The notes under the pieces are model-generated. The model saw only the letters and a list, made by a program, of their open reading frames with translations. It ran no database searches and was not told the origin of the DNA. Position numbers and translations under genes: made by a program. This document shows, piece by piece, positions 12,264-63,431 of a DNA stretch of 64,000 nucleotides. The stretch is from sequence record MG589383; one strand, written 5' to 3'. This DNA is from Shigella phage phi25-307. Every line of letters begins with the position of its first letter. Position 1 is the first letter of the stretch.

Positions 12264-12264
<1 letters not shown>
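12073..12264 (-). CDS. Hypothetical protein, 63 aa
   Basis: ORF whose ATG overlaps the pseT stop as TAATG. Confidence 0.5.
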
Positions 12265-13350
<1,086 letters not shown>

Positions 13351-13351
<1 letters not shown>

Positions 13352-13650
13352 TATTTTATTCCTAAGAAAATTTCAAGAATACGAATGTTATGCTCGCGCC
13401 GGTCTTTATTAATTTCAGCAACGTTTTTATTAATTGACGTACTTCTAACGTTTGAAGAAATAAATTTAATCATATGACTTTTGAGTTGTTGCAAATCCAA
13501 CCCTTTTTCTTTAGCAGCTTTACGAAGAGCTTTACCTGCTTCATCTAGTGCCTTTGCTGCATCTTTGTCATAATTGCCGAGTGACATTCCACGACAGATA
13601 TCAATATACTCATCAGACCGTTTGATGTAATTCTCTAGTAATGTTTTCAT
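13351..13650 (-). CDS. Hypothetical protein, 99 aa
   Basis: ORF downstream of the promoter at 13689-13719. Confidence 0.55.
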
Positions 13651-13688
13651 TTAGATTTCCTCAATTATCCATAGGAGCATTATACTCT

Positions 13689-13719
13689 GCTCCTGAGAGT
13701 TTGTAAACTATTTTACTAA
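13689..13719 (-). promoter_or_regulatory. Early promoter (GTTTACA, 18 nt, TATAAT) with AGGAGC/GCTCCT inverted repeat
   Basis: Minus strand GTTTACAAACTCTCAGGAGCAGAGTATAATGCTCCTATGG. Confidence 0.55.
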
Positions 13720-13932
13720 AGATTCAATATACTCGTGAAGAGCTTTAGTCGCTACTGCCCACTTATTCTGATATTCATTTTTCAGATTAGCACGAGACTG
13801 AACTAACAATCGGTCATTAGTCGGAGGCAAAGATTCTAATCGTTGAATCTGGCGCCCATAAATCATAGCCGCCATTTCAGATTCATAGATAAGCCCTTTA
13901 ATGTATTCATGTTGTTCTTTAGTCATTGGCAT
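13708..13932 (-). CDS. Hypothetical protein, 74 aa
   Basis: ORF in the pseT-alc interval. Confidence 0.5.
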   Translation of the reverse strand: MPMTKEQHEYIKGLIYESEMAAMIYGRQIQRLESLPPTNDRLLVQSRANLKNEYQNKWAVATKALHEYIESLVK

Positions 13933-14213
13933 TTTTCCTCTTTTAAACCACTACGATAATAACATATCATAGTCTTCTGGTCATGTACATATCTTTTTAC
14001 ATCGTTTAACCAGATACGAAATTCTTGAGAGTCTTCAAACGGCATTCCAACCCACGGATTACCATCAATAACCTTTACTTGCCATTTCTGGTTATATTCA
14101 ACAATAGATTCAGGCCATGGCGGATGTAAAGTTTCTTTAGGGCTTAAGGGCACATCCTGGGCACATCCAGCCAAAATACTAATAGATAATACAACTGCGG
14201 TTAATTTAATCAT
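13923..14213 (-). CDS. Predicted lipoprotein, 96 aa
   Basis: N-terminus MIKLTAVVLSISILAGCAQ: signal peptide with lipobox LAGC. Confidence 0.55.
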   Translation of the reverse strand: MIKLTAVVLSISILAGCAQDVPLSPKETLHPPWPESIVEYNQKWQVKVIDGNPWVGMPFEDSQEFRIWLNDVKRYVHDQKTMICYYRSGLKEEKCQ

Positions 14214-14566
14214 TCTGAGAGCTTCCTGAGGTCTTCTGCAAAGGAATCGAAGGACTTGTTGATTTGTTTTTCGACCAATCCTGGTTTACTTGCCACCACG
14301 TTCTTCTTCTTCGAATCCTTACGGAGCTTTTCATTTTCGGCCTTAAGTTGGTCAACTAAAACACGGTTCTTATAAGTCATTTCTTCGATTGACTGATACT
14401 GAACCTTGAAGTCGTCTAATACTTTAGCATTGTTTTTAGCGGTCTCTTTGACAGAAGCTAATTCAGTATTCAACGAATCAACTTTGTTGTTTAAGACAAC
14501 TATTGTTACCGTAGAAACTAGAGCAAAAGCTGCTACTATAGTATAAATCGGATTTACTTTAAGCAT
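14210..14566 (-). CDS. Membrane-anchored coiled-coil protein, 118 aa
   Basis: Hydrophobic N-terminal helix (IYTIVAAFALVSTVTIVVL) followed by a charged helical region. Confidence 0.55.
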   Translation of the reverse strand: MLKVNPIYTIVAAFALVSTVTIVVLNNKVDSLNTELASVKETAKNNAKVLDDFKVQYQSIEEMTYKNRVLVDQLKAENEKLRKDSKKKNVVASKPGLVEKQINKSFDSFAEDLRKLSE

Positions 14567-15054
14567 GTTTTAATAATCTCAATGATTTCATCTCGGGATA
14601 ATCCATTGATAAGAACGGTTTTCGGACCATCGCACTGGATTTTGTACGATTCAAACAATACACACAACTCTTCTGCTGTATGATACGGACTTGAAATTCC
14701 GAGGCGGTTGAATTTGTCGGTAAGAGGGTCGCAAATAATGTAGAATTTTATACCTGCGATATGTACATTTGGTTGACTAATATTAATGAACACATTAGCG
14801 TCATATTTAGTCAAATTGTTTTGAAGAAATTCTACCATGGCATTAACTGCTTCTGGCATCGCTTCACGTTTCTCTTCGGTGTAACGTGTTGAATATTCCT
14901 TTTGCTTTAACTTCTTTTTAGCATTTTTGGCCAGTGTAACACGTAGGTCAGTAAGATAACCAACTGGACGTCCTTTCTTAAAGACCCTGATTCCATCTGA
15001 AGAATCACCAAATGCTGCCACAACCATATCGTTAGTAATCAATTGCATATTCAT
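14554..15054 (-). CDS. alc: Alc-like inhibitor of host transcription, 166 aa
   Basis: Start set at ATG 15054 (MNMQLITN...), preceded by GAGGAG and the early promoter at 15085-15114; size and position (between the pseT cluster and rnlA) match T4 alc. No motif check possible. Confidence 0.55.
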   Translation of the reverse strand: MNMQLITNDMVVAAFGDSSDGIRVFKKGRPVGYLTDLRVTLAKNAKKKLKQKEYSTRYTEEKREAMPEAVNAMVEFLQNNLTKYDANVFINISQPNVHIAGIKFYIICDPLTDKFNRLGISSPYHTAEELCVLFESYKIQCDGPKTVLINGLSRDEIIEIIKTCLK

Positions 15055-15084
15055 AATTTTCTCCTCGTGATGTTGATAAAAGCC

Positions 15085-15114
15085 ATAGTAACACCATCCT
15101 TGGTGTTTGTAAAC
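15085..15114 (-). promoter_or_regulatory. Early promoter (GTTTACA, 18 nt, TACTAT)
   Basis: Minus strand GTTTACAAACACCAAGGATGGTGTTACTATGGC. Confidence 0.5.
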
Positions 15115-15116
15115 CA

Positions 15117-16250
<1,134 letters not shown>

Positions 16251-16266
16251 TCAGTTAGTTTTTTAA

Positions 16267-16296
16267 ATTGTACCACAATCCTTGTGGCGTGTAAAC
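16267..16296 (-). promoter_or_regulatory. Early promoter (TTTACA, 17 nt, TACAAT) with CCACAAGG/ATTGTGG inverted repeat, upstream of rnlA
   Basis: Minus strand GTTTACACGCCACAAGGATTGTGGTACAAT. Confidence 0.5.
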
Positions 16297-16706
16297 TACT
16301 TTTTCTTATGTTGGATATTCCAAGGCGGGTTGAACTTTTTGATAAAAAGCGGTTCTTCAAGGTCCATTGTTGCGATGGTCATTGAACCAAGTTCGTTGGT
16401 GACTGAAAGGTCAAAACATTGGCGGGCCCAGAATTCAACCTTTTTGCCTTGCATTAAGGCATCCAAAATCATAAGTGATTTTCTTGAATCTGAAGTCTGG
16501 TCTTTTCGATTTATGGCTGTTCGATAATAGTTAATGCGTTTCTTTAAATTCTTGGTTTTACCAATATACACAAGTTCGTCATCTATAGCAATAGCGTATA
16601 TGACATTTTTCTTATTAGGGACATCAACTGTTTTAATTGTTGCATCTTCTAATAGCTCCAATTCTGTATATTTAATAAAGGAATATTCGGCGGCAATATC
16701 TTTCAT
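16296..16706 (-). CDS. denA: Endonuclease II (GIY-YIG family DNA endonuclease), 136 aa
   Basis: Same length as T4 DenA and a close match to its remembered sequence (VIYAIAIDDELVYIGKTKNLKKRINYYRTAINRKD...PPWNIQHKKK). Confidence 0.92.
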   Translation of the reverse strand: MKDIAAEYSFIKYTELELLEDATIKTVDVPNKKNVIYAIAIDDELVYIGKTKNLKKRINYYRTAINRKDQTSDSRKSLMILDALMQGKKVEFWARQCFDLSVTNELGSMTIATMDLEEPLFIKKFNPPWNIQHKKK

Positions 16707-16710
16707 AATA

Positions 16711-16730
16711 AAGTGGGACCGAAGTCCCGT
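16711..16730 (-). promoter_or_regulatory. Intercistronic UUCG-loop hairpin between nrdB and denA
   Basis: GGGAC-CGAA-GTCCC, followed on the minus strand by ACTTTATT and the denA ATG. Confidence 0.4.
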
Positions 16731-16732
16731 CC

Positions 16733-17920
16733 TTAGAAATATTTTTTGTATGAATTGATTACATTTTGGTCTACATCATTATCAATTTGTGCGACAAGAT
16801 AAGAACTGATTTCAACTTCCTGAGGAGCTGCTTGAACTAAATCAGAGTTCAGATATTCACGAATCCAAGGATATGGATGCTTGGTCGGAGCATCAGTGAT
16901 TGGGCATGGTAAACCACACTGTTTCATACGAGACACAGTCAAGTAATCAACAAAAGCACACATACTCTGCGTATTGATACCTGGGCATGTACCGTTTTTA
17001 AAGAGGTGTGCAGCCCATTCCTTCTCTTGTCTATTTACTTCCATAAAAATGTCAACTGCTTCTTGTTCACATTCTTTAGCAATTTGAACCCACTCATCAC
17101 CATCAGTACCAGATTGAAGTTGACGGATAATGTACTGAGTACCCTTGAGGTGGAGTTGTTCGTCACGAGCAATGAACTTCATAATCTTTGCATTACCTTC
17201 CATAATTTCCATATTTTTATGGAAGTTGAAAGTACATGCAAATGATACGTAAAAACGAATAGCTTCTAAGGCATTGATAACATGCAAACAGAGATAAAGA
17301 GACTTCATTAAATCACGCTTGGCGTTAAACATTATTTCTTCATACATCTCAATATCATTCTGCTGGCATGAGCCTATTGAACGCTCATAATCTTCCTTAG
17401 CGTTTTCCCAATAACGAGTTTTAACCAGAACATCATCGTAATATTTACCTATTGATTCAGCTCGTTTCATGATTGCTTCGTCTAATACAATTTCATCAAA
17501 TACCTTAGATGGGTCCGTATAAAGATTTCGCATAATATGAGTATACGAACGAGAGTGAATAGTTTCACTGAATGTCCATGTTGCAACCCACGTATCTAAT
17601 GAAGGGTCAGAAATCAGTGCCATAAGTACCGCAGATGGGGCCCTGCCTTGGATAGAATCTAATAATGATTGATACTTAAGATTGTTTGTAAAGATGTCCT
17701 GTTGGAACTGAGGAAGCTTATTGAACTGCGCAGAGTCCAACATCAAGTTTACCTCTTCTGGGCGCCAAAAAAACGATAATTGCTTTTCGGTCAAATCTTC
17801 AAAAACTTTATGGCGTTGAATATCATAACGCGCAATACCAAGACCAGAACCAAAGAACATCGGTTCATTCAAAACATCAACTTGTTGTGTGTTAAAAACT
17901 GTACTCATTATATTTCTCAC
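16733..17920 (-). CDS. nrdB: Ribonucleotide reductase small (beta) subunit, 395 aa, uninterrupted
   Basis: Class Ia RNR beta-like sequence with a single continuous ORF (no intron); position denA-nrdB-nrdA as in T4. Confidence 0.88.
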   Translation of the reverse strand: MRNIMSTVFNTQQVDVLNEPMFFGSGLGIARYDIQRHKVFEDLTEKQLSFFWRPEEVNLMLDSAQFNKLPQFQQDIFTNNLKYQSLLDSIQGRAPSAVLMALISDPSLDTWVATWTFSETIHSRSYTHIMRNLYTDPSKVFDEIVLDEAIMKRAESIGKYYDDVLVKTRYWENAKEDYERSIGSCQQNDIEMYEEIMFNAKRDLMKSLYLCLHVINALEAIRFYVSFACTFNFHKNMEIMEGNAKIMKFIARDEQLHLKGTQYIIRQLQSGTDGDEWVQIAKECEQEAVDIFMEVNRQEKEWAAHLFKNGTCPGINTQSMCAFVDYLTVSRMKQCGLPCPITDAPTKHPYPWIREYLNSDLVQAAPQEVEISSYLVAQIDNDVDQNVINSYKKYF

Positions 17921-24041: not shown

Positions 24042-24049
24042 TATTTATA
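24042..24049 (-). promoter_or_regulatory. Candidate late promoter TATAAATA upstream of gene 32
   Basis: Minus strand TTTATAAATAAATC. Confidence 0.4.
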
Positions 24050-36057: not shown

Positions 36058-36606
36058 AAACTCTATCACTATTATTTTGACACTAAAGAATTTTACAAAG
36101 AAGAAAATTATAAACCATTAAAAGGCGTAGGATTTCCAGCTCATTCGACACCAAAAAAACCTTTAGACCCTAAAGAAGGCTATGCTGTTGTATTTGATGA
36201 ACGCGAACAAGAATGGGTATATGTTGAAGACCATCGTGGAAAAACAGTATGGACTTATGATAAGCAAAAAATTGTTATTGACACTCCAGGTGCTCTTCAA
36301 AATGTTACTACAGAAGAACCTGGTGAATTTGACATTTGGACCGGCGACGGGTGGAAGGAAGATGAAGCATATAAACGCGTAGTTCAACGTGATAAGAAAA
36401 TTCATGAACTCTATAAATTATTCAGTGTTTTAAGTTCTCTTATTGACGCAGAGGTTGCTAATAGAGAAGAAAAACGAAAATTTAAAGAGCTCAAAAAATT
36501 CTTTGCCCTTTTAGAAAAACATGAACATCTTGGTGGTGAATTCCCTAAATTCCCTGACCTTGAAAACAAATCTATTGTCAAAGCGATTATAAATATCTTT
36601 AAGTAA
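36055..36606 (+). CDS. 38: Tail fibre assembly chaperone gp38 (T4 type, not the T2-type adhesin), 183 aa
   Basis: Same length as T4 gp38 and close match to remembered sequence (YHYYFDTKEFYKEENYKP.KG.G.PAHST.KKPL.PKEGYAVVFDE...FALLEKHEHLGGEFP). Confidence 0.9.
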   Translation: MKLYHYYFDTKEFYKEENYKPLKGVGFPAHSTPKKPLDPKEGYAVVFDEREQEWVYVEDHRGKTVWTYDKQKIVIDTPGALQNVTTEEPGEFDIWTGDGWKEDEAYKRVVQRDKKIHELYKLFSVLSSLIDAEVANREEKRKFKELKKFFALLEKHEHLGGEFPKFPDLENKSIVKAIINIFK

Positions 36607-36615
36607 GGAGGTATT

Positions 36616-37275
36616 ATGGCAACACCAAAAGTATCATTTTCGCCTAGTGATATTCTATTTGGGTTGCTAGATCGTATTTTCAAAGATAACGCTACTGGAA
36701 AGGTTTTAATGTCTCGAGTAGCGGTAATTATTCTTTTGTTCCTAATGGCACTAATATGGTACAAAGGAAGTATTTTGCTGGATTATTATGTAAGAGCTAA
36801 GTATGATACTTATACTGAAATAATCCAAAAAGAACGAGCTTTACGTTTTGAATCTGCGGCTCTAGAACAACTGCAAATAGTTCATATCTCATCTGGTGCA
36901 GATTTTAGTGCTGTGTATTCTTTCAGACCTAAAAACTTAAATTATTTCGTCGACCTTATAGCTTATGAAGGCAAACTACCTAGCACAATTTCTGAAAAGT
37001 CCCTTGGCGGATTTCCGGTGGATAAAACGGCCAATGAATATATAATTCATTTAAGTGGCCGTCATTTCTCATCTAAATCAGAATTTGCATTTTTGCCTAC
37101 AAAATCTAAGACCGCCGAACTTTCTTATATGTATAGTTGCCCATACTTTAATTTGGATAACATCTATGCTGGGACTGTGACGATGTATTGGTATAAGGGG
37201 AGTAATATACTTGAGGAGGATCGCTTAGCGGCTATATGCAACCAAGCGATCCGAATACTAGGAAGGGCTAAATAA
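36616..37275 (+). CDS. t: Holin T, 219 aa
   Basis: Close match to remembered T4 holin (SFSPSDILFG.LDR.FKDNATGKVL.SRVAV..LLF.MA..WY...), single N-terminal TM segment and large periplasmic domain; SD AAGGAGG. Confidence 0.92.
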   Translation: MATPKVSFSPSDILFGLLDRIFKDNATGKVLMSRVAVIILLFLMALIWYKGSILLDYYVRAKYDTYTEIIQKERALRFESAALEQLQIVHISSGADFSAVYSFRPKNLNYFVDLIAYEGKLPSTISEKSLGGFPVDKTANEYIIHLSGRHFSSKSEFAFLPTKSKTAELSYMYSCPYFNLDNIYAGTVTMYWYKGSNILEEDRLAAICNQAIRILGRAK

Positions 37276-61743: not shown

Positions 61744-62403
61744 TTAACCTCGATTCATAAATGCATTAAATATTTGGTCATCAACAGAAATTTCTAATTC
61801 GACTTCAATTGCTTCAGCCTTTTCTTCAGGTGGTAATTCGTATCCACACACTACAATTTTTTCATCAATATCAAAATATACAGAAGCAATATGATTAATG
61901 TTATTTTCGGTTAAGTCTAAATCAACATCAACATCTTTTTGACCTACACTTAAAGGATAACTAATACGGGTTATTTTATTATCTTTAACAAAGAGTCCAC
62001 CGACATACTCTGTACTACGTTTGAAGTTTACACGTTTCCGAAATGAAAGATATGATGCATCTTTACCATGAGCTCGGCTCATAGGACATAATGAATAGCT
62101 AGAATAAGAGATGTCAAATCCTACACCTTCAATATGAGCCAACGTGTCATGATTAAACCAATTATAATCATATGCCAAATCCATTATATTGTAATATGTG
62201 AAAGGCACCGGATTAACATCATACGTTGTACCTTTAAAATCTGCCCAGGCAACGATTTCGTTATCTTTAACAATTACAAAAATTACACCAATATGGTATC
62301 CGTTATTATTTTCATTCGGCGTTATATTATAACATTGTGCATTAGGAAATTTACCATATTTAAACGGCGCGTTTTTGTGCATGTAATAAATCATATTATT
62401 CAC
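61744..62403 (-). CDS. Hypothetical protein, 219 aa
   Basis: ORF in the 61-sp interval. Confidence 0.55.
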   Translation of the reverse strand: MNNMIYYMHKNAPFKYGKFPNAQCYNITPNENNNGYHIGVIFVIVKDNEIVAWADFKGTTYDVNPVPFTYYNIMDLAYDYNWFNHDTLAHIEGVGFDISYSSYSLCPMSRAHGKDASYLSFRKRVNFKRSTEYVGGLFVKDNKITRISYPLSVGQKDVDVDLDLTENNINHIASVYFDIDEKIVVCGYELPPEEKAEAIEVELEISVDDQIFNAFMNRG

Positions 62404-62689
62404 CTGTGATTTCGGTTACGATATCTTTGTTATCGAAATTAGGGTCACAATACAAAACATAATTGTACTGCATGATACCGCCAGACTTAAGTTGTTCAAC
62501 AACTTTATTAACCATATTAGGACGATCTCGTTTAGTGATGTTCATGATATCAGAGAAGATTTGTTGTTCAACATCTTCTTGATTTGCAGTCATTGACCAC
62601 TCACAGAGGTCTTTATCATAACCTGCCGTAACTGGAGCTGGTGCGCATGATACTGCAAGTAAGATTGCTGCCAATGATAACTTTTTCAT
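62396..62689 (-). CDS. sp: Spackle (Sp) periplasmic superinfection-exclusion protein, 97 aa
   Basis: Signal peptide MKKLSLAAILLAVSCAPAPVTA, then AGYDKDLCEWSMTA and MQYNYVLYCD matching remembered T4 Sp; same length (97 aa). Confidence 0.85.
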   Translation of the reverse strand: MKKLSLAAILLAVSCAPAPVTAGYDKDLCEWSMTANQEDVEQQIFSDIMNITKRDRPNMVNKVVEQLKSGGIMQYNYVLYCDPNFDNKDIVTEITGE

Positions 62690-62710
62690 TTTAACTCCTT
62701 AGTTGATTTG

Positions 62711-62748
62711 ATAGGACTACTATACTATAGTCCATCTATAATGTAAAC
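62711..62748 (-). promoter_or_regulatory. PeSL-like early promoter cassette (family B)
   Basis: Minus strand GTTTACATTATAGATGGACTATAGTATAGTAGTCCTATC. Confidence 0.55.
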
Positions 62749-62752
62749 AAGT

Positions 62753-63001
62753 TTATTCTTTTTCGCGAATAATAATTACTTGTTGAGGCTGCTGAGCAGA
62801 TTTCTTTTCGGCAACGATAGACCAAATTAAAGTTCCAATCCAACCAACCATCGTCCAGTTAAAGAGTAAAGATACAAAGAAGATTGCTGTTGTGCTTTTT
62901 GTGCCACGAATAAGTGCGATTACCCAAGGCAACATGTAAATGATGATTGAACCAATACCTGCGATTAAAACTGCTACTGAACTAGCTACGAATAATTCCA
63001 T
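62753..63001 (-). CDS. Small inner-membrane protein with two predicted TM helices, 82 aa
   Basis: Hydrophobic segments LFVASSVAVLIAGIGSIIIYMLPWVIALI and AIFFVSLLFNWTMVGWIGTLIWSIV; has its own promoter (63029-63058) and SD. Confidence 0.6.
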   Translation of the reverse strand: MELFVASSVAVLIAGIGSIIIYMLPWVIALIRGTKSTTAIFFVSLLFNWTMVGWIGTLIWSIVAEKKSAQQPQQVIIIREKE

Positions 63002-63028
63002 GTTAATTTCCTCTTGATTTGTTATGTT

Positions 63029-63058
63029 TATAGTATCTTGGTTTAACTTTAGTGTAAA
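63029..63058 (-). promoter_or_regulatory. Early promoter (TTTACA, 17 nt, TACTAT) within TGGTTTA/TAAACCA inverted repeat
   Basis: Minus strand TGGTTTACACTAAAGTTAAACCAAGATACTAT. Confidence 0.5.
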
Positions 63059-63062
63059 CCAA

Positions 63063-63431
63063 TTAATTAAATTTGTTTAAACGTTCAATACACTGGATGT
63101 AGTTATTCGCGATTTGTTTCTGGGTAGGCTCTTTACCAGTTGTTTCAACATAGCGAATGAATGCGATTTCAGTAGCCTGTAAGCAATGTTCTTTAACGCG
63201 CTGTTCTTTTGACATAGCTACAGTATCAGAATCACGATAACGTTGAGCATGAGCATCAGCTTGAATCATTCGATTACCTACAGTAACCGGGTCTTCCACT
63301 TCAACTTTAGGTTGTTCATACTGTTTAACATTCGGATTGTAAATCAGTTGGCCGACGTTATTAGGAATAAAGCCATGGGCACCACATCCTGTTAATCCAA
63401 ATACCATTGCTAAAGCGATTAATTTTTTCAT
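63063..63431 (-). CDS. Predicted lipoprotein, 122 aa
   Basis: N-terminus MKKLIALAMVFGLTGCGAHG: signal peptide with lipobox LTGC. Confidence 0.6.
   Translation of the reverse strand: MKKLIALAMVFGLTGCGAHGFIPNNVGQLIYNPNVKQYEQPKVEVEDPVTVGNRMIQADAHAQRYRDSDTVAMSKEQRVKEHCLQATEIAFIRYVETTGKEPTQKQIANNYIQCIERLNKFN

Follow-up and report, generated by a model that had tools for sequence, protein, structure and literature searches.

What is the function of the two short, overlapping ORFs that lie between pseT and alc in Shigella phage phi25-307? The DNA analysed was a stretch of 64,000 nucleotides from sequence record MG589383 (here called the window), and the original prediction had described these ORFs as an envelope-targeted pair, a lipoprotein plus a membrane-anchored coiled-coil-like protein, that was expressed early, had no known function and went together with another such pair near sp. 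The ORFs were indeed found in the pseT-alc interval, both on the minus strand, which the prediction had left unstated. The features of this region were as follows.

12264..13163, polynucleotide kinase PseT, a neighbour of the pair
13160..13650, minus strand, two small conserved ORFs between pseT and pseT.1, homologues of RB69ORF230c and 231c
13923..14213, minus strand, pseT.2 orthologue (o-spanin), a 96-aa precursor of a predicted outer-membrane lipoprotein (phrog_812, BLASTP against T4)
14210..14213, minus strand, 4-bp ATGA start/stop overlap of pseT.3 and pseT.2, read from the junction sequence
14210..14566, minus strand, pseT.3 orthologue (i-spanin), a predicted type II inner-membrane protein of 118 aa (phrog_739, BLASTP against T4)
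14554..15117, minus strand, Alc (longest ORF), a neighbour of the pair
15117..16241, RNA ligase 1, the neighbour beyond Alc

The window DNA was 99% identical to that of the Mosigvirus phages vB_EcoM-ZQ3, JS09 and HX01; the phage is a Mosigvirus, an RB69/JS09-like relative of T4. A location of the pair between alc and pseT.1/pseT was common to T4, JS09 and five other genera. Unlike T4, Mosigvirus carries two extra small ORFs between pseT.1 and pseT (13160..13650), encoding products of 63 aa (phrog_8683) and 99 aa (phrog_2364), which T4 lacks at that position.

To assign the two predicted proteins, they were compared with PHROGs, T4 and RefSeq. The 118-aa protein matched phrog_739 (“Rz-like spanin”, category lysis) with an E value of 7e-35 over residues 1–117, was 48% identical to T4 PseT.3 by BLASTP (E 3e-33), and was 100% identical to JS09 YP_009037544, an “Rz-like spanin”. 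The 96-aa protein matched phrog_812 (also “Rz-like spanin”, category lysis) over its full length (3e-43), was 68% identical to T4 PseT.2 by BLASTP (E 7e-50), and differed by two substitutions from JS09 YP_009037545 (98% identity). Both genes are named “Rz-like spanin” in the JS09 RefSeq record, with the notes “PseT.3” and “pseT.2”, and pseT.3 and pseT.2 carry the same product name in the T4 RefSeq record. Pfam and NCBIfam, which contain no model of these families, gave no significant family for either protein, the i-spanin having only sub-threshold coiled-coil or DUF matches; PHROGs, BLAST and synteny are therefore the basis of the family assignment. A PDB sequence search gave no match for either protein. 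As judged from these sequence comparisons, the two genes very probably encode the T4-type two-component spanin of this phage, with PseT.3 as the i-spanin and PseT.2 as the o-spanin. The label “unknown function” can thus be replaced: the function of the pair is known from its T4 orthologues, PseT.3/PseT.2, which can stand in for lambda Rz/Rz1 during lysis (PMC6139136).

The pair is an already known and characterised system of “separated” architecture. Both genes lie on the same strand, the i-spanin gene directly 5′ and overlapping the o-spanin gene by 4 bp, and even an 8-bp overlap is still classed as separated (PMC6139136). The ATGA overlap probably reflects translational coupling of pseT.3 and pseT.2.

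The features of the o-spanin were as follows.

14163..14213, minus strand, predicted lipoprotein signal peptide, residues 1–17 (regular expression and hydropathy)
14163..14174, minus strand, lipobox LAGC, ending at Cys17, the predicted acylated residue
13929..13964, minus strand, cysteine region with Cys84 (13962..13964) and Cys95 (13929..13931), 11 residues apart

The N-terminus of the o-spanin (MIKLTAVVLSISILAGC) carried Lys at position 3, followed by a hydrophobic h-region without charged residues (residues 4–14, mean Kyte-Doolittle value 2.57), and its LAGC fitted the lipobox consensus [LVI][ASTVI][GAS]C used for the o-spanin test (PMC6139136), in agreement with the lipobox first proposed for this ORF. 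Positions +2 and +3 were occupied by Ala and Gln; with Ala rather than Asp at +2 there is no inner-membrane retention signal, and sorting to the outer membrane was predicted. When a crude lipoprotein-signal regular expression was applied to all window ORFs of at least 45 aa, the o-spanin ORF was one of three matches. One other match lay antisense within a tail-fibre gene and is presumably spurious. Cys84 and Cys95 aligned with Cys87 and Cys98 of T4 PseT.2, and the protein contained verbatim WLNDVKRYVHDQKT, the peptide that raised the anti-PseT.2 antibody (PMC6139136). A single-sequence AF2 model, computed without an alignment, was of low confidence (mean pLDDT 49) and had the segments E46–55, H63–75 and E84–95. 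For the PseT.2 family, a periplasmic domain of beta-alpha-beta type is predicted.

The i-spanin had one further feature.

14492..14548, minus strand, transmembrane segment, residues 7–25, IYTIVAAFALVSTVTIVVL (top 19-residue Kyte-Doolittle window, 2.43)

These residues were helical in the AF2 model of the i-spanin, which is predicted to have a single N-terminal transmembrane domain (TMD) in type II orientation (N-in/C-out). Charged residues made up 38% of the 93 residues outside this segment, and there was no cysteine. The AF2 model (single-sequence, mean pLDDT 85.6) had two helices, at residues 6–87 and residues 96–117, separated by a short linker around Pro95-Gly96. In a heptad test the best a/d pattern was found at residues 26–53, with a score reached by 30 of 2000 shuffles, so that “coiled-coil-like”, as this charged region had been described, was a reasonable term for the membrane-proximal helix. 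By tblastn, the i-spanin matched 1015 phage records, down to ~30% identity. Sequence features of the two proteins thus agreed with an envelope-targeted pair made up of a lipoprotein and a membrane-anchored helical protein.

Kongari et al. 2018 (PMC6139136) present T4 PseT.3/PseT.2 as the model case of a two-component spanin with “separated” genes. When T4 pseT.3/pseT.2 were cloned in place of Rz/Rz1, lysis of a lambda RzamRz1am lysogen was restored (PMC6139136). The two periplasmic cysteines of T4 PseT.2 are at positions 87 and 98; the C87S and C98S mutants were both lysis-defective, and a disulfide-linked PseT.2 dimer was seen only when PseT.3 was present; T4 PseT.3 itself has no cysteine and contains two periplasmic helices with a short linker, only alpha1 being coiled-coil-prone (PMC6139136). 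The window pair resembled that of T4 in its orthologous sequences, its locus between alc and pseT.1, its 4-bp ATGA overlap, its o-spanin with a lipobox Cys17 and two C-terminal cysteines 11 residues apart, and its cysteine-free i-spanin with an alpha1-linker-alpha2 periplasmic domain. The lipobox differed (LAGC vs LVGC in T4), as did the TMD sequence, and the o-spanin was 3 residues shorter in the linker; within the spanin pair these amounted only to ordinary sequence divergence. A pair of identical function also occurs in RB69, JS09 and HX01 (Mosigvirus).

A comparison across genera was made with eight loci, comprising the window and seven extracted pairs, from T4 (Tequatrovirus), SP18 (Gaprivervirus), KP1 (Jiaodavirus), CF1 (Moonvirus), JSE (Krischvirus), myPSH1140 (Karamvirus) and Klebsiella phage RCIP0009. 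All eight had the o-spanin lipobox Cys, with Ala or Ser at +2 where scored, and all eight had the two C-terminal o-spanin cysteines, spaced by 11 residues but by 8 in the most distant member. A periplasmic cysteine was found in none of the eight i-spanins, and an ATGA or GTGA start/stop overlap joined the two spanin genes at every locus.

The window pair was also compared with spanins of other types. Like lambda Rz/Rz1, it would combine a type II inner-membrane helical protein with an outer-membrane lipoprotein in disulfide-linked complexes. No similarity between the window pair and lambda Rz or Rz1 was detectable by BLASTP (E 6.5 and 0.15), and the PHROGs were different (phrog_13 and phrog_3198 for lambda Rz and Rz1, 739 and 812 for the window pair); the only matches shared by lambda Rz and the window i-spanin were weak ones to phrog_214. 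In lambda, Rz1 lies entirely within Rz, in the +1 frame, whereas the window genes are adjacent. Membership of the lambda Rz/Rz1 sequence families was rejected on these three grounds: no similarity, other PHROGs, and genes that are not embedded. The window spanin genes also lie, unlike those of lambda, outside any lysis cassette with holin and endolysin. T4-type spanins differ further from Rz/Rz1 in having cysteines in the o-spanin only, and in a larger o-spanin that is predicted to be structured, with only alpha1 of the i-spanin prone to form a coiled coil (PMC6139136). With the unimolecular spanin gp11 of T1 the window pair would share the final lysis step, disruption of the outer membrane, and an N-terminal lipoprotein signal (PMC6139136); T1 gp11 is one polypeptide with an N-terminal lipobox and a C-terminal TMD, whereas the anchors of the window pair are on two proteins.

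A mechanism can be proposed from these comparisons. PseT.3 would sit in the inner membrane, held there by its N-terminal transmembrane segment, with its long helical domain reaching into the periplasm; PseT.2, after export and lipidation at Cys17, would be sorted to the outer membrane and lie in its inner leaflet. Both would bind each other via their periplasmic domains, the o-spanins being disulfide-linked through Cys84 and Cys95, and the resulting complexes would bridge the periplasm, threaded through the peptidoglycan meshwork. Made from early/middle transcripts, they would be harmless while the peptidoglycan is intact. After holin T, which is expressed late, has let endolysin out and the wall has been broken down, the complexes would be free to collapse and oligomerise, fusing the inner and outer membranes and so removing the last barrier to progeny release. 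This scheme follows the spanin model, developed mainly from lambda, in which the intact wall blocks collapse and its degradation by endolysin allows oligomerisation and membrane fusion (PMC9636201). Membrane fusion is established for lambda Rz/Rz1 and we infer it for the PseT.3/PseT.2 family; by analogy, the window proteins would act identically to those of T4, their interaction and lipidation, like fusion, being carried over from T4 and lambda.

The holin that would act as the functional partner of the pair was found elsewhere in the window.

36588..36595, TATAAATA late-promoter box of holin t (exact motif), 21 bp 5′ of the ATG
36616..37275, plus strand, holin t, functional partner of the spanin pair (ORF and phrog_860)

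The t product of 219 aa matched phrog_860 with an E value of 3.5e-102. About 22 kb separate this plus-strand gene from the minus-strand spanin genes, the lysis genes being dispersed as in T4. With T4 lysozyme as a tblastn query for the endolysin gene e, no significant match was obtained within the window.

Lysis proteins are not usually expressed early. The original prediction had called the pair “early-expressed”, and this holds for the T4 orthologues: in time-resolved transcriptomics and proteomics (PMC9697503 supplements), T4 pseT.2 had early RNA and early protein, and T4 pseT.3 early RNA and middle protein. For the window pair itself early expression is probable, by analogy with T4. No TATAAATA late-promoter box was present in the 11–18 kb region of the window, and the nearest upstream one on the coding strand was at 24042, about 9.5 kb from the pair. 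A scan of 13000..17000 for sigma-70-like promoters gave 14 sites vs 13.1 expected, which is chance level, and a MotA-box-like pattern occurred 22 times in the whole window vs 15.5 expected, none of the sites being convincingly placed for the spanin pair. Early synthesis of spanins fits the spanin model, because spanins would stay inactive as long as the wall is in place. The early timing could hint at an additional role, and the model accommodates it. There is a slim chance that the spanins also act in the envelope before lysis, e.g. by tethering the two membranes to each other during lysis inhibition or by modulating superinfection, since the subunits come from early transcripts, long before lysis, unlike the late-promoter-driven holin. 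If so, such a role would be a feature of T4-like phages that lambda-type spanins lack.

That the pair is, in place of a spanin, an early envelope-remodelling or superinfection-exclusion module, imposing an Imm- or Sp-like block of phage DNA or of lysis from without, is highly improbable. Such a module would share with imm and sp the early RNA and early/middle protein of the T4 orthologues, and would suit the position of the genes in a cluster of early genes, a long way from holin t and with no late-promoter box near; it is opposed by the strong orthology to T4 proteins that are functional substitutes for lambda Rz/Rz1 in lysis, and by the conserved essential cysteine pair, which together with the coupled layout of inner-membrane anchor and outer-membrane lipoprotein is a spanin signature. 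Moreover, the pair was similar to neither the Imm nor the Sp family, and those are encoded separately, at 62396..63001. The “pair near sp” of the original prediction was in fact a three-gene envelope cluster on the minus strand (62396..63431).

62396..62689, minus strand, spackle Sp (phrog_1586, 3e-42)
62753..63001, minus strand, two-TM protein of 82 aa (C-terminal part of phrog_1039, “immunity to superinfection”, 1e-30)
63063..63431, minus strand, lipoprotein of 122 aa with lipobox LTGC and Cys16 (unannotated phrog_1754, 2e-28)

These genes belong to different families, none of which matched a spanin family, and the two annotated ones (spackle and Imm-like) are not lysis proteins. The spanin pair should not be grouped with this Sp/Imm-like/lipoprotein cluster at 62.4–63.4 kb.

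A reading of the two ORFs as chance, non-functional frames, with a lipobox and a TM segment that arose by coincidence in AT-rich sequence, could appeal to their shortness (96 and 118 aa) and the lack of a significant Pfam/NCBIfam family, but is effectively refuted by conservation of the i-spanin as a protein in 1015 phage records, by a partner ORF immediately downstream with overlapping start/stop and conserved cysteines at 8 of 8 loci, and by published detection of the T4 proteins by proteomics and western blot.

The two genes thus read very probably as a PseT.3/PseT.2 spanin, and the value of the identification lies mainly in correct annotation, the “unknown envelope pair” being accounted for. 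Over a thousand of the T4-like phages sequenced carry the pair, and its RefSeq label is already correct; in many GenBank records the spanin genes are still named “hypothetical protein”, or the o-spanin is missing altogether.

The longest alc ORF of the window encodes 187 aa from its first ATG, the JS09 product is annotated as 166 aa, and the Pfam ALC and PHROG matches start only at residue 22. The internal ATG at 15054 has a good Shine-Dalgarno sequence (GAGGAG) in front of it, so that the true Alc is probably the shorter product.

Three observations on gene calls were made among the extracted pairs. In myPSH1140 (MG999954.1), the o-spanin gene (L007:1154..1456) was absent from the annotation; the ORF encodes 100 aa, with a GTG start on the i-spanin stop (GTGA), a LAGC lipobox and the two conserved C-terminal cysteines. 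In JSE (NC_012740.1, L006:1109..1561), the annotated pseT.2 product is 150 aa long and has the Cys of its lipobox, LSSC, at residue 68, which points to either an internal true start or an unusual extension of the N-terminus. At 88 aa, the i-spanin annotated in JSE apparently lacks the N-terminal TMD, suggesting a mis-called start.
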